64,000 nt of DNA from Escherichia coli (GTDB taxonomy: Bacteria > Pseudomonadota > Gammaproteobacteria > Enterobacterales > Enterobacteriaceae). Where the stretch lies: NCBI RefSeq assembly GCF_003334405.1, contig NZ_QOWM01000008.1, one strand, 5' to 3'. Each line of letters opens with the position of its first letter. Position 1 is the stretch's first letter. This document shows positions 9,678 to 42,139 of this stretch, one piece after another. The position numbers were made by a program, and so were the translations under genes. A model generated the notes under the pieces. That model made no database searches and was not told the origin of the DNA. It saw nothing but the letters and a program-made list of their open reading frames with translations.

Positions 9678-10397
9678 ATGACCCTTGATTTACCTCGCCG
9701 CTTCCCCTGGCCGACGTTACTTTCGGTCTGCATTCATGGTGCTGTTGTGGCGGGTCTGCTCTATACCTCGGTACATCAGGTTATTGAACTACCTGCGCCT
9801 GCGCAGCCGATTTCTGTCACGATGGTTACGCCTGCTGATCTCGAACCGCCACAAGCCGTTCAGCCGCCACCGGAGCCGGTGGTAGAGCCAGAACCGGAAC
9901 CTGAGCCGATCCCCGAACCGCCAAAAGAAGCACCGGTGGTCATTGAAAAGCCGAAGCCGAAACCTAAGCCAAAACCGAAGCCGGTGAAAAAGGTACAGGA
10001 GCAGCCAAAACGCGATGTCAAACCCGTAGAGTCGCGTCCGGCATCACCGTTTGAAAATACGGCACCGGCACGCCTGACATCAAGTACAGCAACGGCTGCA
10101 ACCAGCAAGCCGGTTACCAGTGTGGCTTCAGGACCACGCGCATTAAGCCGTAATCAGCCGCAGTATCCGGCACGAGCACAGGCATTGCGCATTGAAGGGC
10201 AGGTTAAAGTTAAATTTGACGTTACGCCGGATGGTCGCGTGGATAACGTACAAATCCTCTCAGCCAAGCCTGCGAACATGTTTGAGCGTGAGGTGAAAAA
10301 TGCGATGCGCAGATGGCGTTATGAGCCGGGTAAGCCAGGCAGTGGGATTGTGGTGAATATCCTGTTTAAAATTAACGGCACCACCGAAATTCAGTAA
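9678..10397 (+). CDS. tonB: Energy transducer TonB
   Basis: 239 aa from ATG 9678; N-terminal anchor, (EP)n and (KP)n proline-rich repeats. Confidence 0.95.
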   Translation: MTLDLPRRFPWPTLLSVCIHGAVVAGLLYTSVHQVIELPAPAQPISVTMVTPADLEPPQAVQPPPEPVVEPEPEPEPIPEPPKEAPVVIEKPKPKPKPKPKPVKKVQEQPKRDVKPVESRPASPFENTAPARLTSSTATAATSKPVTSVASGPRALSRNQPQYPARAQALRIEGQVKVKFDVTPDGRVDNVQILSAKPANMFEREVKNAMRRWRYEPGKPGSGIVVNILFKINGTTEIQ

Positions 10398-18377: not shown

Positions 18378-19973
18378 TTACCCTCGTGCCGCCAGTGCGG
18401 TGACTCTGTCGTAAGCGGAACCACTGCGCAGTACCTCAAGAACGGTTTGCGCATTGGCTTGCAGATCTTCATGGCCATGCAGGCGCATTAACATGGCGAC
18501 GTTCGCAGCGACGGCTGCTTCATGGGCGGCGTCGCCTTTACCTTGTAACAAACGTGTTAAAATGTCACGGTTTTCTTCCGGTGTTCCGCCTGCCAGTTGC
18601 TCCTGGTGGTAGGGTGTCAGGCCAAAGTCTTCTGCGGTGAGCTGATAGCTTTTAATTTCGCCGTCATGCAGTTCGGCAACGATTGTCGGCGCGTGTAATG
18701 AAACTTCATCCATCCCGCCGCTGTGCACCACCGCCGCGCGTTGATACCCCAGCACGCGCAAGGTTTCGGCAATCGGCAGCACCAGTTCCGGACTATAAAC
18801 ACCAATTAACGCCAGCGGCGGATGCGCCGGGTTAATCAATGGCCCCAGCACATTGAACAGGGTGCGGGTTTTCAGTTGCTGGCGAACCGGCATCGCGTGG
18901 CGGAATCCGGTGTGATACTTCGGCGCAAAGAGGAAACATACACCTAACTCATCCAGCGCCTGGCGCGATTTATCGGCGTTCATATCAAGATTAATACCGA
19001 ACGCCGCCAGCAGATCGGACGAACCAGATTTACTGGAGACGCTACGGTTGCCGTGTTTCGCCACTTTCAGCCCACAGGCCGCGGCGACAAACGCACTGGC
19101 GGTAGAAATATTGATACTGTTGCTGCCGTCACCGCCAGTACCGACGATATCAGCAAACAGATAATCCGGGCGCGGGAACGGCGCTGCGTTTTCCAGTAGC
19201 GCGGTTGCTGCCCCGGCGATCTCGTTCGGGTGCTCACCGCGAATTTTCATGCTCACCAGCGCCGCCGCCAGTTGTTCCGGCTTCAGCTCGCCACGCACCA
19301 CCGCTGAAAACAGCTGGTGGCTTTCTTGTTGGCTAAGCGTCTGCGCCTGATACAGTTTTTCCAGAATCGGTTGCAGCGTGTTGGCTGGCTCTAGTTTCTG
19401 CTGCGCCCAGGCCAGCGTTTGTTCCAGCAGGCGAGCGCCCTGGGTGGTGAGAATGGATTCCGGATGGAACTGGAATCCACAAACGCGATCCGCATCGTGA
19501 CGTACTGCCATCACCATGCCATTAAAATGGGCGTTGATGGTTAAACCGGCCGGAATGTTACTGCCAACCAGCGAGTGATAACGCGCCACCGGCAGCGGGT
19601 TTGTTAATCCGGCAAACATCGCCTGACCGTCATGTTCAATGCTGGAGGCTTTACCGTGGAGAATTTCGCCCGCCTGACCGACATAGCCCCCGTAAGCTTC
19701 GACAATCGCCTGATGTCCGAGGCAAATGCCAATAATGGGCAGCTTGCCACGCAAGCGGGTGAGGAGTTCCGGCATACAACCGGCTTCGCTCGGCACACCG
19801 GGGCCAGGAGAAAGCATCAGCACCGGATTGCTCATGGTCGCCAGGCGTTCAATTAAGGTTTGCGCCGGAATATGGTTGCGGTAAATCACCACGTTATGCC
19901 CATTGCTGCGCAACTGATCTGCCAGGTTGTACGTAAAAGAGTCGATATTATCGAGCAGCAGAATGTCAGCCAT
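18378..19973 (-). CDS. trpD: Bifunctional anthranilate synthase component II / anthranilate phosphoribosyltransferase
   Basis: 531-aa ORF; overlaps trpE stop. Confidence 0.96.
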
Positions 19974-21535
19974 CAGAAAGTCTCCTGTGCATGATGCGCG
20001 GTGGCAATAGCGCGCAGTACAGCGCGGGCTTTGTTACGGGTTTCGTCGGCTTCCGACTGCGGAACAGAATCAAGGACTACACCAGCACCCGCTTGCACGG
20101 TGGCGATACCGTTTTCCACCAGCGCCGAGCGGATCACAATGCAGGTGTCGAGATCGCCATGCGCGGTGAAATAACCTACCGCGCCGCCGTAGCTGCCGCG
20201 GCGACGACCTTCCGCCTCGGCAATTAACTGCATAGCGCGTACTTTCGGCGCACCGCTTAACGTCCCCATATTCATACAGGCGCGATAAGCGTGCAGGGCG
20301 TCAAGATCGTGACGCAGTTCGCCGACTACGCGAGAGACGAGGTGCATCACATAGGAATAACGGTCAACTTTGGTGAGATCGGCGACGTAGCGGCTGCCGG
20401 GGGTGCAAATGCGTGCCAGATCATTACGGGCGAGATCAACCAGCATCAGATGTTCAGACAGCTCTTTATGATCGGTACGCATTTCCAGTTCAATACGGCT
20501 GTCGAGATCTCTGTCCAGTGAACCATCGGCGCGACGACCGCGTGGGCGTGTTCCGGCAATCGGGTAGATCTCAATCTGGCGGCTGGTGGCATCATACTTG
20601 AGCGAGCTTTCCGGCGACGCGCCAAATAGGGTGAAATCATTATCCTGCATAAAAAACATGTACGGGCTGGGATTACTCTTTTTCAGCACGTAATAGGCCG
20701 CCAGCGGTGACGGGCAGGGCAGAGAGAAACGGCGAGATGGCACCACCTGGAAAATTTCTCCAGCGCGAATCGCTTTTTGCAACAAACGCACTACGCCACC
20801 GAACTCTTCATCGCTCTGATTACATTCACAACGCATATGCGGCACGGAAACCACTGGCAGCGGCGGCGCGGCTTCGGTCAGTTGCTGACGTAGTTCGTTC
20901 AGGCGAGCAGTGAGACGTTGTTTTTCTTCTTCATTCGGAGCAAACAGGCTGGCCTGAATACGGGTGCTTTTTTTCTGATGGTCAATCACCATCAGCGTTT
21001 CAGCGAGATAAAAACAGAAATCAGGGCAGTTATTTTCCGCTGACAGTTGCGGTAAATCTTCAAATCCCGCCACAAGGTCATAAGAGAACAGGCCGCCGAA
21101 GAACATGGCTTCTCGTTCTTCCTTCGGTACATTCAACAGATTCTGCAATAAACGGAAAGCGTCAAAAACCGAAAGGGAGCATAAGCGGGCGTCTTCATCC
21201 AGCAGTGGACTGACAGGGGGGAAGCGCAGCACACGGCAGTTTGGTGATTGTTCACTTTCCACACCCGCAGGCAGGGCGTTATCCAGTAGTGCCAGCAGGG
21301 CTTCGCCGTTGCCGGAAAGTGCCTGGATTGTGACAGTGTCACCTAAAGCTGTAATGCGCAGCGCACTGTCTACCAGCAGCAGGCTTTTTAAATCATCTTT
21401 GCTGTCGATATCTGCGGATTCCAGCAGCAGCGTTGCCGGACGATCCCCACACAACTGGTGAAAAAGCGCGGTGGGATTGTCGCGATAAGCGCCTTCGCAG
21501 GTTAGCAGTTCGAGAGTCGGTTTTTGTGTTTGCAT
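19973..21535 (-). CDS. trpE: Anthranilate synthase component I
   Basis: 520-aa ORF. Confidence 0.97.
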
Positions 21536-21808: not shown

Positions 21809-22690
21809 TTGAGCGACACGAATTATGCAGTGATTTACGACCTGCACAGCCATACCACAGCTTCCGATGGCTGCCTGACGCCAGAAGCATTGGTGCACCG
21901 TGCAGTCGAGATGCGCGTCGGCACCCTGGCGATCACCGACCATGACACCACAGCTGCAATCGCGCCAGCAAGAGAGGAAATTTCACGTTCGGGACTGGCG
22001 TTGAATCTTATTCCCGGCGTGGAAATTTCCACGGTCTGGGAAAATCATGAAATTCATATTGTCGGGCTGAATATTGATATTACTCATCCGCTAATGTGTG
22101 AGTTCCTCGCGCAGCAGACAGAACGGCGCAATCAGCGGGCGCAGCTGATTGCCGAAAGACTTGAAAAAGCGCAAATACCTGGGGCGCTGGAAGGCGCACA
22201 ACGACTGGCGCAGGGCGGCGCAGTGACGCGCGGTCATTTTGCGCGTTTCCTTGTTGAGTGCGGCAAAGCCAGTTCAATGGCGGATGTCTTTAAAAAGTAT
22301 CTGGCGCGCGGGAAAACCGGATACGTTCCGCCACAGTGGTGTACAATAGAACAAGCTATTGATGTCATTCATCATTCTGGCGGTAAGGCGGTGCTAGCTC
22401 ATCCTGGGCGGTACAATCTTAGTGCTAAATGGCTGAAAAGATTGGTTGCGCATTTTGCCGAACACCACGGTGACGCGATGGAAGTCGCGCAGTGCCAGCA
22501 ATCGCCCAATGAACGTACCCAGCTGGCGGCCCTTGCGCGTCAGCATCATTTATGGGCATCACAAGGATCTGATTTTCATCAGCCATGCCCGTGGATCGAA
22601 CTGGGTCGTAAACTCTGGCTGCCCGCAGGCGTTGAAGGCGTCTGGCAGCTATGGGAACAGCCGCAGAACACCACAGAGAGGGAATTATGA
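21809..22690 (+). CDS. trpH: PHP-domain phosphoesterase TrpH/YciV (5'-3' exoribonuclease RNase AM, also called rnm); TTG start
   Basis: 293-aa ORF; N-terminal HSHTTASDG PHP motif. Confidence 0.9.
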   Translation: MSDTNYAVIYDLHSHTTASDGCLTPEALVHRAVEMRVGTLAITDHDTTAAIAPAREEISRSGLALNLIPGVEISTVWENHEIHIVGLNIDITHPLMCEFLAQQTERRNQRAQLIAERLEKAQIPGALEGAQRLAQGGAVTRGHFARFLVECGKASSMADVFKKYLARGKTGYVPPQWCTIEQAIDVIHHSGGKAVLAHPGRYNLSAKWLKRLVAHFAEHHGDAMEVAQCQQSPNERTQLAALARQHHLWASQGSDFHQPCPWIELGRKLWLPAGVEGVWQLWEQPQNTTEREL

Positions 22691-23307
22691 GCCAGTTTTT
22701 TTATATTCATCCTGATAACCCACAGCAACGTCTGATCAACCAGGCGGTGGAGATCGTGCGTAAAGGCGGGGTGATTGTTTATCCAACTGATTCCGGCTAT
22801 GCGCTCGGCTGTAAAATTGAAGATAAAAACGCGATGGAGCGTATTTGTCGTATTCGCCAGCTGCCGGACGGTCACAACTTTACCCTGATGTGTCGCGATC
22901 TTTCTGAACTCTCGACCTATTCATTTGTTGATAACGTTGCGTTTCGTTTAATGAAAAACAACACGCCGGGCAACTATACCTTCATCCTGAAGGGGACGAA
23001 GGAAGTGCCACGCCGTCTGTTGCAGGAAAAACGCAAAACCATCGGTATGCGTGTGCCTTCTAACCCTATCGCTCAGGCGTTACTTGAAGCATTGGGCGAA
23101 CCGATGCTTTCCACTTCGCTAATGCTGCCAGGCAGCGAATTTACCGAATCGGACCCGGAAGAAATTAAAGATCGTCTGGAAAAACAGGTAGATTTGATTA
23201 TTCACGGCGGCTATCTCGGGCAGAAACCGACAACGGTTATTGATCTTACCGATGATACGCCGGTCGTGGTGCGTGAAGGCGTAGGTGATGTGAAGCCTTT
23301 CTTATAA
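22687..23307 (+). CDS. yciO: YciO (YrdC/Sua5-like dsRNA-binding family)
   Basis: 206 aa from ATG 22687 inside ORF 22651-23307; ATGA overlap with trpH stop. Confidence 0.88.
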   Translation: MSQFFYIHPDNPQQRLINQAVEIVRKGGVIVYPTDSGYALGCKIEDKNAMERICRIRQLPDGHNFTLMCRDLSELSTYSFVDNVAFRLMKNNTPGNYTFILKGTKEVPRRLLQEKRKTIGMRVPSNPIAQALLEALGEPMLSTSLMLPGSEFTESDPEEIKDRLEKQVDLIIHGGYLGQKPTTVIDLTDDTPVVVREGVGDVKPFL

Positions 23308-23334
23308 CAAATTGCGTTCCACGGATGGAAGACT

Positions 23335-25230
23335 ATGGCAGGGAAGTTTCGCTGCATTTTGCTGTTGATAGCAGGGCTGTTTGTATCATCTCTAAGTTAT
23401 GCAGAAAACACGGAGATCCCTTCTTATGAAGAAGGGATCTCGCTCTTTGATGTTGAAGCCACTCTGCAACCAGATGGGGTGCTCGACATCAAAGAAAATA
23501 TTCATTTTCAGGCGCGAAATCAGCAGATTAAGCACGGCTTTTATCGTGATTTACCACGACTATGGATGCAGCCTGATGGGGACGCTGCACTGCTGAACTA
23601 TCATATTGTTGGCGTCACCCGTGATGGTATTCCTGAACCCTAGCATCTTGACTGGCATATCGGGTTAATGAGTATTGTCGTGGGCGATAAACAACGTTTC
23701 TTGCCTCAAGGCGACTATCATTATCAAATTCATTATCAGGTTAAAAATGCTTTCCTGCGTGAGGGGGATTCTGATCTGCTAATCTGGAACGTGACCGGTA
23801 ACCACTGGCCGTTTGAAATTTATAAGACCCGTTTTTCTCTCCAGTTCTCTAATATTGCGGGTAATCCATTTAGCGAAATCGATCTCTTTACCGGAGAAGA
23901 GGGCGACACATATCGTAATGGCCGCATCCTTGAGGACGGAAGAATTGAATCCCGCGATCCGTTTTATCGTGAAGATTTCACGGTCCTCTACCGCTGGCCT
24001 CACGCTTTACTTAGCAATGCCTCGGCTCCGCAAACGACGAATATTTTCAGCCATCTTCTTTTACCCTCCACGTCATCGTTGTTAATTTGGTTTCCGTGTC
24101 TGTTCCTGGTTTGTGGATGGTTATATCTCTGGAAGCGCAGGCCGCAATTTACGCCGGTAGATGTGATTGAAACCGATGTCATTCCGCCAGATTACACGCC
24201 CGGCATGTTACGTCTCGATGCGAAGCTAGTTTACGACGATAAAGGTTTTTGTGCCGATATCGTAAATCTGATTGTGAAAGGAAAAATTCATCTGGAAGAT
24301 CAGTCTGACAAGAACCAGCAAATCCTGATTCGTGTTAATGAAGGCGCGACCAGAAATAATGCGGTATTACTGCCCGCAGAGCAGTTATTACTGGAAGCGT
24401 TATTTCGTAAAGGCGATAAGGTCGTTCTTACGGGGAGACGCAACAGAGTCTTACGCAGGGCATTTTTACGGATGCAGAAATTTTATCTGCCGCGTAAAAA
24501 GTCTTCGTTTTACCGGTCTGATACTTTTTTGCAATGGGGTGGACTGGCAATATTGGCGGTCATTCTTTACGGTAACTTGAGTCCTGTAGGCTGGGCAGGA
24601 ATGAGTCTGGTGGGCGATATGTTTATTATGATCTGCTGGATTATTCCTTTTTTATTTTGTTCCCTTGAGCTTTTGTTTGCCCGCGATGATGACAAGCCTT
24701 GCGTTAATCGTGTAATCATCACTTTGTTTTTACCACTGATTTGTTCAGGCGTGGCCTTCTATTCTCTCTACATCAATGTCGGAGATGTATTCTTTTACTG
24801 GTATATGCCAGCGGGTTATTTTACCGCTGTTTGCCTGACCGGTTATCTCACTGGCATGGGGTATATTTTTCTGCCAAAGTTTACCCAAACTGGACAGCAA
24901 CGTTATGCCCACGGTGAAGCTATCGTTAACTATCTTGCGCGTAAAGAGGCAGCAACACACAGTGGACGTCGGCGGAAAGGGGAAACACGGAAACTGGATT
25001 ACGCGTTGCTAGGTTGGGCTATATCGGCAAATTTGGGGAGGGAATGGGCGTTACGCATTGCCCCTTCGCTTTCTTCGGCGATTCGCGCTCCAGAGATTGC
25101 CCGTAACGGCGTTTTATTCTCATTACAGACGCACCTAAGTTGCGGGGCCAATACCAGTTTGTTGGGGCGAAGTTATTCCGGTGGTGGTGCTGGCGGCGGC
25201 GCGGGTGGCGGAGGCGGTGGTGGCTGGTAA
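23335..25230 (+). pseudogene. yciQ: DUF2207 membrane protein YciQ interrupted by one in-frame TAG at 23641-23643
   Basis: Track ORFs 23335-23643 (102 aa) and 23668-25230 (520 aa) are in the same frame, separated only by the TAG plus 8 sense codons; 102+1+8+520 = 631 codons; signal peptide only in the N-fragment. Confidence 0.6.
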
Positions 25231-25357
25231 TTAAGCTGATGTTAATCGAAACAAGCTTTAACCATAAAGATAGTGTAGTATGTTGCGCCTCAAAGCCAGG
25301 CCGATAAACGTCGAGTCGTTTACTTAAGGCCTGAAGAGTTCAAACAGACTTTACTAT

Positions 25358-25388
25358 CAGTGAGTCAGATGTAAGTTCTGACTCACTG
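25358..25388. other. Perfect 12-bp-stem inverted repeat in the yciQ–rluB spacer
   Basis: cagtgagtcaga-tgtaagt-tctgactcactg; no T-run on either side. Confidence 0.7.
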
Positions 25389-25440
25389 TTGCACAAAAGC
25401 ATATCAGACGCCTGGGAAGGCGACACCAAAAGGAAGCTCT

Positions 25441-26316
25441 ATGAGCGAAAAGCTACAGAAAGTGCTGGCGCGTGCCGGCCACGGTTCTCGCCGTGAAATC
25501 GAATCTATTATTGAAGCCGGTCGTGTGAGTGTTGATGGCAAAATTGCTAAACTCGGCGATCGTGTTGAAGTTACCCCTGGATTGAAAATCCGTATCGATG
25601 GTCACCTGATTTCGGTACGTGAGTCCGCTGAACAAATTTGTCGCGTTCTGGCCTATTACAAACCGGAAGGTGAGTTGTGTACCCGTAACGATCCGGAAGG
25701 ACGTCCAACGGTGTTTGACCGTCTGCCAAAACTGCGTGGCGCACGCTGGATTGCCGTGGGTCGCTTGGACGTTAATACCTGTGGTCTGCTGCTGTTCACC
25801 ACCGATGGTGAACTGGCAAACCGTTTAATGCACCCAAGCCGTGAAGTTGAACGTGAATATGCCGTGCGTGTATTTGGTCAGGTTGACGACGCGAAACTGC
25901 GTGATTTGAGTCGTGGCGTGCAGTTGGAAGATGGTCCGGCAGCTTTTAAAACCATCAAGTTCAGCGGCGGCGAAGGGATCAACCAGTGGTACAACGTGAC
26001 TCTGACCGAAGGCCGTAACCGTGAAGTTCGTCGTCTGTGGGAAGCGGTTGGTGTGCAGGTGAGCCGCCTGATCCGTGTTCGTTACGGTGATATCCCACTG
26101 CCAAAAGGTCTGCCACGCGGTGGCTGGACGGAGCTGGACCTCGCCCAGACTAACTATCTGCGCGAACTGGTGGAGCTACCGCCAGAAACCAGCTCTAAAG
26201 TCGCTGTAGAAAAAGACCGTCGTCGCATGAAGGCGAATCAGATTCGTCGTGCGGTGAAACGTCACAGTCAGGTGAGCGGCGGTCGTCGTTCTGGCGGACG
26301 TAATAATAACGGTTAA
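25441..26316 (+). CDS. rluB: 23S rRNA pseudouridine synthase RluB
   Basis: 291-aa ORF; S4 domain then RsuA-type catalytic domain; Arg/Gly-rich C-terminal tail. Confidence 0.95.
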
Positions 26317-34419: not shown

Positions 34420-37095
34420 ATGTCGTCAACCCTACGAGAAGCCAGTAAGGACACGTTGCAGGCCAAAGATAAAACTTACCACTACTACAGCCTGCCGCTT
34501 GCTGCTAAATCACTGGGCGATATCACCCGTCTACCCAAGTCACTCAAAGTTTTGCTCGAAAACCTGCTGCGCTGGCAGGATGGTAACTCGGTTACCGAAG
34601 AGGATATCCACGCGCTGGCAGGATGGCTGAAAAATGCCCATGCTGACCGTGAAATTGCCTACCGCCCGGCAAGGGTGCTGATGCAGGACTTTACCGGCGT
34701 ACCTGCCGTTGTTGATCTGGCGGCAATGCGCGAAGCGGTTAAACGCCTCGGCGGCGATACTGCAAAGGTTAACCCGCTCTCACCGGTCGACCTGGTCATT
34801 GACCACTCGGTGACCGTCGATCGTTTTGGTGATGATGAGGCATTTGAAGAAAACGTACGCCTGGAAATGGAGCGCAACCACGAACGTTATGTGTTCCTGA
34901 AATGGGGAAAGCAAGCGTTCAGTCGGTTTAGCGTCGTGCCGCCAGGCACAGGCATTTGCCATCAGGTTAACCTCGAATATCTCGGCAAAGCAGTGTGGAG
35001 TGAATTGCAGGACGGTGAATGGATTGCTTATCCGGATACACTCGTTGGTACTGACTCGCACACCACCATGATCAACGGCCTTGGCGTGCTGGGGTGGGGC
35101 GTTGGTGGGATCGAAGCAGAAGCCGCAATGTTAGGCCAGCCGGTTTCCATGCTTATCCCGGATGTAGTGGGCTTCAAACTTACCGGAAAATTACGTGAAG
35201 GTATTACCGCCACAGACCTGGTTCTCACTGTTACCCAAATGCTGCGCAAACATGGCGTGGTGGGGAAATTCGTCGAATTTTATGGTGATGGCCTGGATTC
35301 ACTACCGTTGGCGGATCGCGCCACCATTGCCAATATGTCGCCAGAATATGGTGCCACCTGTGGCTTCTTCCCAATCGATGCTGTAACCCTCGATTACATG
35401 CGTTTAAGCGGGCGCAGCGAAGATCAGGTCGAGTTGGTCGAAAAATATGCCAAAGCGCAGGGCATGTGGCGTAACCCGGGCGATGAACCAATTTTTACCA
35501 GTACGTTAGAACTGGATATGAATGACGTTGAAGCGAGCCTGGCAGGGCCTAAACGCCCACAGGATCGCGTTGCACTGCCCGATGTACCAAAAGCATTTGC
35601 CGCCAGTAACGAACTGGAAGTGAATGCCACGCATAAAGATCGCCAGCCGGTCGATTATGTTATGAACGGACATCAGTATCAGTTACCTGATGGCGCTGTG
35701 GTCATTGCTGCGATAACCTCGTGCACCAACACCTCTAACCCAAGTGTGCTGATGGCCGCAGGCTTGCTGGCGAAAAAAGCCGTAACTCTGGGCCTCAAGC
35801 GGCAACCATGGGTCAAAGCGTCGCTGGCACCGGGTTCGAAAGTCGTTTCTGATTATCTGGCAAAAGCGAAACTGACACCGTATCTCGACGAACTGGGGTT
35901 TAACCTTGTGGGATACGGTTGTACCACCTGTATTGGTAACTCTGGGCCGCTGCCCGATCCTATCGAAACGGCAATCAAAAAAGGCGATTTAACCGTCGGT
36001 GCGGTGCTGTCCGGCAACCGTAACTTTGAAGGCCGTATCCATCCGCTGGTTAAAACTAACTGGCTGGCCTCGCCGCCGCTGGTGGTTGCCTATGCGCTGG
36101 CGGGAAATATGAATATCAACCTGGCTTCTGAGCCTATCGGCCATGATCGCAAAGGCGATCCGGTTTATCTGAAAGATATCTGGCCATCGGCACAAGAAAT
36201 TGCCCGTGCGGTAGAACAAGTCTCCACAGAAATGTTCCGCAAAGAGTACGCAGAAGTTTTTGAAGGCACAGCAGAGTGGAAGGGAATTAACGTCACACGA
36301 TCCGATACCTACGGTTGGCAGGAGGACTCAACCTATATTCGCTTATCGCCTTTCTTTGATGAAATGCAGGCAACACCAGCACCAGTGGAAGATATTCACG
36401 GTGCGCGGATCCTCGCAATGCTGGGGGATTCAGTCACCACTGACCATATCTCTCCGGCGGGCAGTATTAAGCCCGACAGCCCAGCGGGTCGATATCTACA
36501 AGGTCGGGGTGTTGAGCGAAAAGACTTTAACTCCTACGGTTCGCGGCGTGGTAACCATGAAGTGATGATGCGCGGCACCTTCGCCAATATTCGCATCCGT
36601 AATGAAATGGTGCCTGGCGTTGAAGGGGGGATGACGCGGCATTTACCTGACAGCGACGTAGTCTCTATTTATGATGCTGCGATGCGCTATAAGCAGGAGC
36701 AAACGCCGCTGGCGGTGATTGCCGGGAAAGAGTATGGATCAGGCTCCAGTCGTGACTGGGCGGCAAAAGGTCCGCGTCTGCTTGGTATTCGTGTGGTGAT
36801 TGCCGAATCGTTTGAACGAATTCACCGTTCGAATTTAATTGGCATGGGCATCCTGCCGCTGGAATTTCCGCAAGGCGTAACGCGTAAAACGTTAGGGCTA
36901 ACCGGGGAAGAGAAGATTGATATTGGCGATCTGCAAAACCTACAACCCGGCGCGACGGTTCCGGTGACGCTTACGCGCGCGGATGGTAGCCAGGAAGTCG
37001 TACCCTGCCGTTGTCGTATCGACACCGCGACGGAGTTGACCTACTACCAGAACGACGGCATTTTGCATTATGTCATTCGTAATATGTTGAAGTAA
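34420..37095 (+). CDS. acnA: Aconitate hydratase A
   Basis: 891-aa ORF. Confidence 0.97.
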
Positions 37096-41917: not shown

Positions 41918-42139
41918 AATACTCTCTCCTGAATTTATGATTCACGGAAGTAAGCTCTCTATAACTATAATAGCTAAGAATAAGCTTGGTGAAATTATTC
42001 CGTGAAATCTGCTCGCGCGCAGGGTTATATCACGCAGGTGATAATGACTTCCTGTTATATCGCTGATAATAATTTTATATCTTGAGAGTGTTAATAACAG
42101 GTAAATAGTCTTAATTATCAACCAGGAATCATCTTAGAG

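Follow-up and report, generated by a model that had tools for sequence, protein, structure and literature searches.

A premature amber codon in place of Trp103 interrupts yciQ in a strain of Escherichia coli

The yciQ gene carried by the 64,000-nucleotide stretch of Escherichia coli DNA analyzed here (the window) is, with high confidence, a genuine loss-of-function amber allele produced by a single G:C-to-A:T transition at position 23642, which changed the Trp103 codon from TGG to TAG. The same allele is already flagged as a pseudogene in RefSeq, in strain N61. Our analysis adds that the mutated G lies in a Dcm methylation site, that the stop recurs on several yciQ haplotypes, that this codon is TGA in strain HB101 and in its parent RR1, and that yciQ is frequently lost from E. 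coli.

Reading frame, gene identity and predicted product

The pseudogene occupies positions 23335-25230 of the plus strand, and translation of this interval yields 632 codons, of which one is an internal stop at codon 103 and the last is a TAA. Upstream of the internal stop, an open reading frame of 102 codons (23335-23643, plus strand) begins with ATG and ends at the TAG at 23641-23643, which is followed by a C; it encodes a signal-peptide-like segment (hydrophobic residues 5-23, then SYA/EN) and, after it, the beginning of the periplasmic DUF2207 N-terminal domain. A second open reading frame of 520 codons (23668-25230, plus strand) lies in the same frame and starts at Met112, and between the stop and this methionine are eight sense codons, HLDWHIGL (23644-23667), corresponding to residues 104-111 of intact YciQ. 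A Kyte-Doolittle scan of the C-terminal fragment marked a hydrophobic segment at residues 245-267 (24067-24135), a predicted first membrane span followed by KRR, and a cluster of hydrophobic segments at residues 421-482 (24595-24780), predicted to form further spans. The fragment closes with a Gly-rich tail, GGGAGGGAGGGGGGGW (25180-25227). A preliminary description, made from the sequence alone, had noted two frames in one register parted by the TAG and eight codons, with the signal peptide on the first and the membrane segments and Gly-rich tail on the second, and both the translation and the hydropathy scan agree with it. It had also given the joint span of 631 codons as the length of intact YciQ, which is indeed what E. 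coli C and K-12 encode (1,896 nt, 631 amino acids; WP_001326916.1).

Gene identity was established by similarity and by gene order. The window allele is identical to yciQ of E. coli C at 1,895 of 1,896 nucleotides, the sole difference being A instead of G at 23642, and it differs from a K-12 allele at that base and at a synonymous C/T at 23886. Upstream lie trpE, trpL, rnm and yciO and downstream rluB, cobO, yciK and sohB, the same neighbors as in E. coli C and K-12. The position between yciO and rluB in the order rnm-yciO-yciQ-rluB, together with 99.9% identity to annotated yciQ, bears out the name given in the preliminary description. The last gene of the rnm-yciO-yciQ cluster is yciQ, and its product is a functionally uncharacterized inner-membrane protein of the DUF2207 type. 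A scan for sigma-70-like promoters across 22600-25500 returned no sites, and no canonical terminator was found between yciQ and rluB.

In a megablast search with the 1,896-base query, annotated yciQ (DUF2207 domain-containing protein) was matched in 3,977 of 5,426 complete E. coli genomes, the top full-length matches showing one mismatch. About 3,970 complete genomes carry yciQ as one continuous gene, so that the two open reading frames are not chance neighbors, and orthologues with two separate genes at this junction, which would have spoken against a nonsense allele, were not what the comparison gave. When Trp was restored at residue 103, a Pfam scan placed PF09972, the DUF2207 N-terminal domain, at residues 35-175 (23437-23859; i-Evalue 2.1e-21) and PF20990, the DUF2207_C domain, at residues 284-535 (24184-24939; i-Evalue 5.6e-9). 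The stop breaks the former at residue 103, inside a single domain, which likewise argues against two genes. An NCBIfam scan of the restored protein assigned no family, and a sequence search of solved structures returned nothing meaningful (best E-value 0.037, to the Gly-rich tail only). Because the frame of some 631 codons is interrupted at codon 103, we regard the locus as a pseudogene of the yciQ/DUF2207 family and not as a functional member.

Reading of the homologous codon in orthologues settled what had preceded the stop. E. coli C, K-12, CP53, ST540, CFT073 and O157:H7 all have TGG at codon 103, and the consensus 38-mer with TGG matches exactly in at least 2,974 complete genomes, with 900 more showing one mismatch at an end. 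The locus thus departs from intact orthologues only in that one of their sense codons has become an in-frame stop, and the TGG-to-TAG transition offered earlier as a guess is seen directly as G to A at 23642 in comparison with E. coli C. A programmed recoding of the stop, by pyrrolysine or by conserved readthrough, would call for a conserved in-frame stop, and the distribution of the two codons (TAG in 1 of 5,426 genomes versus TGG in at least 2,974 by exact 38-mer) does not provide one.

A separate feature of the gene is an inverted repeat at 23413-23441, about 80 nt past the start codon, whose 13-bp arms match perfectly around a 3-nt loop (GAGATCCCTTCTT ATG AAGAAGGGATCTC); by chance, about one window in 1,000 of this size would be expected to hold such a repeat. 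E. coli C, CP53 and CFT073 all retain it unaltered. One arm is changed in ST540 (C to T, with G-U pairing kept) and in O157:H7 (C to G, a mismatch), and the repeat is thus not strictly conserved.

Translation of the amber allele would be expected to end after 102 residues, giving a signal peptide and about 80 residues of an incomplete periplasmic domain; the product would have no membrane span, no DUF2207_C domain and no Gly-rich tail. One could suppose instead that the gene has been split functionally, into a secreted N-terminal fragment of 80 residues and a re-initiated membrane protein of 520 residues, since Met112 is only 24 nt past the stop, where terminating ribosomes could re-initiate, and since gene callers report both frames as proteins. 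We hold this to be extremely improbable. Such a split would cut the DUF2207 N-terminal domain in two, it would deprive the C-terminal fragment of the signal peptide on which export of its first 130 residues depends, and thousands of orthologues are unsplit. The Shine-Dalgarno match for Met112 is, moreover, at background level: its predicted duplex reaches -3.2 kcal/mol, versus -5.7 kcal/mol at the native start and a mean of -2.6 kcal/mol at nearby ATG triplets. Given this weak ribosome-binding match and a product with neither a signal peptide nor the first half of the N-terminal domain, rescue of function by re-initiation at Met112 is unlikely, and the C-terminal fragment is probably not translated efficiently.

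Carriers of the amber codon and an opal codon at the same position

Among the 5,426 complete E. coli genomes in RefSeq, from which the source strain of the window is absent, the 38-mer centered on the TAG matches exactly in one, that of strain N61, which was isolated from bovine mastitis milk in Japan. The count was made with the 38-mer, as a 71-bp probe (also with one exact match) could miss a TAG on haplotypes bearing a nearby single-nucleotide polymorphism. RefSeq lists N61 yciQ (NZ_AP028880.1, locus ACZ5FD_RS12415) as a pseudogene and adds the note "internal stop". It has the same TAG at codon 103 on the same haplotype and differs from the window allele by one synonymous change (24669; G in the window, A in N61). 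Across 47.4 kb, the two sequences show 9 mismatches and 1 gap, and N61 is a different strain.

The TAG was also read in contigs fetched from five more assemblies derived from separate samples (SRR7304389, GCA_002484135.1, ERR12183207, SRR25949876 and SRR33017421). In total, it occurs on three yciQ haplotypes that are 34-82 nt apart. For each, the nearest TGG allele differs by G308A only: the window allele pairs with E. coli C, that of contig L007 with CP53, and that of contig L010 with ST540, the last two being identical over 2.5 kb except at this base. A 102-residue fragment on what seemed a fourth haplotype (P0015) was rejected as a further origin, being a truncation at a contig end, where the sequence terminates in "...CCCTG". 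The assembly GCA_002484135.1 (L009, DLJE01000067.1) has a yciQ identical to that of the window, but in its trpD, trpE and rluB short segments are replaced or missing (relative to the window, 18873-18942, 20264-20627 and 25698-25924), which may be either assembly defects of a metagenome-derived genome or real lesions.

These carriers bear on the concern, raised with the preliminary description, that the stop might be a sequencing or assembly error. The changed base does fall within a Dcm motif, Dcm-methylated sites trouble nanopore base-calling, and in E. coli O157 about 95% of the discrepancies between nanopore and Illumina data were at CC(A/T)GG motifs (PMC6703438). The nanopore miscalls in that study were, however, A-to-G and T-to-C changes at the central base, not G-to-A (PMC6703438), and an artefact of the window's assembly would not account for the same TAG elsewhere: the complete genome of N61 carries it, as do five or more further assemblies built from separate runs, several of them on long k-mer-assembled contigs. 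Nor do the remaining Dcm sites look damaged: over 7.9 kb, the window shows no other altered Dcm site relative to E. coli C, the window and N61 each have 128 CCWGG sites over the 47 kb they share, and no general damage was seen among the 165 CCWGG sites of the window. Since the TAG occurs in independent assemblies on three yciQ haplotypes, sequencing error is unlikely, and we give an artefact of base-calling very little credence.

Exact look-up in a collection of 15 billion proteins returned both the 102-residue and the 520-residue products, the former under the name of E. coli HB101. This name, and the 255 contigs attached to the 102-residue fragment, could not be taken as further copies of the window's allele, because the DNA of HB101 and of RR1 shows TGA, not TAG. 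Two assemblies of HB101 and one of its parent RR1 (NZ_CP184671.1, NZ_CP178859.1 and NZ_CP011113.2) carry TGA at codon 103 (positions 10307-10309 of the NZ_CP184671.1 segment, L005), generated by G309A on the K-12 haplotype. The two alleles affect the same codon and predict identical fragments of 102 and 520 residues, so that exact-protein look-ups merge them. They differ in that the opal allele arose opposite the outer, unmethylated C of the Dcm site and has T at 23886, as in K-12. We conclude that the HB101/RR1 TGA is an independent event in a heavily mutagenized laboratory lineage.

Could the gene still work in its host, either through an amber suppressor tRNA of the supE or supF type or through leaky termination at UAG-C that gives useful full-length protein? 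The C after the stop makes a relatively weak termination context, and HB101, which is known to carry glnV44, has a stop at the same codon; that stop, however, is TGA, which supE does not read. No tRNA genes are present within the 64-kb window. Amber suppressors are uncommon in natural isolates, and the TAG is unconserved, being confined to the single genome among the complete set. The wider record of the gene also argues against retained function, as the L010 lineage has a second stop (TAA at codon 345) and other lineages have frameshifts or insertion sequence (IS) elements, which indicates that the gene decays freely. Continued activity by suppression or readthrough is therefore very unlikely in our estimation.

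Probable mutational origin at a Dcm site and recurrence of the stop

The altered base lies in a former Dcm site. All TGG-bearing alleles examined read CCTGG at 23639-23643, where the window reads CCTAG, and G23642 is opposite the inner, methylated C of the bottom-strand CCAGG; the change thus has the form of an inner C to T on the bottom strand of an ancestral CCWGG. The second C of CCWGG is methylated by Dcm on both strands, which makes such sequences recognized hotspots of G:C-to-A:T change: deamination of 5-methylcytosine yields T, and Vsr acts on the T:G mismatch then present in CTWGG/CCWGG (PMC3527292, PMC2715241, PMC13250602). As G23642 pairs with the bottom-strand inner C, TGG to TAG is exactly the change expected from deamination. 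We consider it probable that G23642A originated by spontaneous deamination of the Dcm 5-methylcytosine on the bottom strand. In such a sequence of events, the 5-methylcytosine paired with G23642 would have deaminated spontaneously to thymine, and the T:G mismatch would have escaped very-short-patch repair by Vsr, leaving CCTAG and an amber codon for Trp103. Only two Dcm sites are present in yciQ, and their four deamination outcomes comprise three silent changes and one stop, the TAG at W103. In N61, the closest complete carrier, dcm and vsr are both intact; the dcm locus is outside the window.

The proposed route has a textbook counterpart in lacI, whose amber hotspots at CCAGG Dcm sites were reportedly described by Coulondre, Miller, Farabaugh and Gilbert in 1978. 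Both cases involve C-to-T change at the inner 5-methylated C of CCWGG, a TAG product and a T:G intermediate that is a Vsr substrate. In yciQ, by contrast, the methylated C is on the noncoding strand and it is a Trp codon (TGG), not a Gln codon (CAG), that becomes amber; the yciQ case is also a comparative one, drawn from natural isolates.

A replication error or the deamination of an unmethylated cytosine, without any part for Dcm, could also have produced the G-to-A change, with recurrence on different haplotypes reflecting the huge number of sequenced genomes. This account concerns the origin of the mutation only, and under it the locus would still be a nonsense pseudogene. We rate it as possible, if less so than deamination at the methylated base. 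G:C to A:T is the commonest spontaneous change whatever the context, and CCWGG sites contribute a small share of all such transitions (PMC13250602). Set against this, the changed base is exactly opposite the methylated C, although 249 single-base nonsense changes are possible in yciQ.

Controls at other codons of the gene bear on the same question. Truncated products for 10 other Gln or Trp nonsense sites were all present in the 15-billion-protein collection (7-135 contigs each, many of them contig-end partials), as would be expected without Dcm. The codons W77 and W107, which lie outside Dcm sites, likewise bear genuine stops, both TAG and TGA, on several haplotypes (at least two). In addition, C306T, the silent change to which this Dcm site can give rise, is found in 20 complete genomes, all on one haplotype, and so has one origin. 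The counts for W103 are nevertheless higher. Its stop occurs in 323 index blocks, versus 61 and 41 for W77 and W107, but the TGA allele of the heavily sequenced strains HB101 and RR1 inflates this figure, and of the W103 contigs read about half carry TGA and not TAG. When only blocks with contigs of 5 kb or longer are counted, the numbers are 208 versus 17 and 7, and the natural W103 stops seen are all TAG, whereas W107 stops are mostly TGA. Together, these comparisons are only suggestive of a raised mutation rate at the W103 Dcm site, a reading weakened by the recurrent nonsense alleles at other Trp codons.

The circumstances of the individual recurrences differ. In the ST540-type gene, a TAA at codon 345 preceded G308A; since the gene was already dead, G308A needed no selection there, which points to mutation pressure rather than selection. 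The haplotype of contigs L007 and L008 is identical to that of the window across 23563-24832, and the TAG in these contigs could derive from a short recombination tract instead of a new mutation. A stronger proposal would make Trp103 a true natural nonsense hotspot driven by Dcm that repeatedly inactivates yciQ, the recurrent loss, in combination with the many deletions and IS insertions, perhaps being selected in some hosts, as in bovine mastitis isolates such as N61. If this were true, cytosine methylation would predictably knock out yciQ in independent E. coli lineages, but we judge the proposal improbable.

Two further Dcm-type sites differ between the window and N61. At 41985-41989, outside any long open reading frame, the window reads CTTGG and N61 CCTGG, a second change of an inner C to T at a Dcm site and one among only 10 differences between the two sequences over 47 kb. 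The reverse case is at 35292, where N61 has TCTGG and the window CCTGG, a synonymous change of the outer C.

Loss of yciQ across E. coli

The amber allele is one of many natural lesions that inactivate or remove the same dispensable gene, and these differ widely in kind. Sensitive blastn detected no yciQ DNA in 1,449 of the 5,426 complete genomes (about 27%); in such genomes, for example APEC O78, yciO and rluB are about 100 bp apart. The APEC O78 spacer (858-957 of segment L019, corresponding to the window interval 23308-25440) has a sequence that is not simply the window's flanks joined. Where the gene is present, it may have a 300-bp in-frame deletion, as in O157:H7 (L018), in which it is annotated as an intact protein of 527 amino acids, or a TAA at codon 345, as in ST540 (L012). 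It is frameshifted in the Santai/APEC37 lineage (L040-L044: Santai, SM107, APEC37, 3CM and GF66.1), and other genomes have IS1, IS26, IS3 or IS5 insertions. Stops also occur at Q45, Q59, W77, Q79, W107 and other codons, and RefSeq annotates some of these further lesions as pseudogenes.

The gene's 3' part shows a second kind of variation. Across 24951-25150, the window haplotype differs from the CP53 and ST540 haplotypes at about 30 positions within 200 bp, and the CP53-type gene is otherwise nearly identical to that of the window. On this pattern of differences, the 3' end of yciQ appears to be a recombinant mosaic.

As yciQ is dispensable and repeatedly lost across E. coli, its loss is probably neutral or nearly so. 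The gene serves metabolic engineers as a neutral integration locus (PMC11943725), and no paper that we found gives it a tested function or phenotype. A pan-genome study of 2025 files yciQ under "transcriptional regulators and DNA-binding proteins" (PMC12595684), which conflicts with the predicted signal peptide, membrane spans and DUF2207 domains. It could be argued instead that positive selection favors the loss of YciQ in certain niches, for instance if the protein is a target exposed at the surface or envelope; the recurrent stops, deletions and IS insertions would then reflect adaptation and not neutral decay. Such selection would fit the many independent inactivations, which are of diverse kinds, and an unusually high allelic divergence (90-95% identity in 1,763 genomes, with the mosaic 3' end). 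However, selection for loss cannot explain G308A in a gene that had already been inactivated, the literature found records no yciQ phenotype, and most genomes keep an intact gene. We regard adaptive loss as unlikely.

Overall, we conclude that the W103 amber codon is a case of ordinary gene decay and that the locus is a nonsense pseudogene. For annotation, both open reading frames, which several gene callers report as two proteins, should be merged into one pseudogene. For the biology of E. coli, the allele carries little weight, since it merely adds to the inactivating lesions of a dispensable gene whose function is unknown. It does illustrate neatly, in nature, how a Dcm site can turn into an amber codon by the textbook route. 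It also flags yciQ as a gene unusually often lost in E. coli, which may interest those seeking its function.
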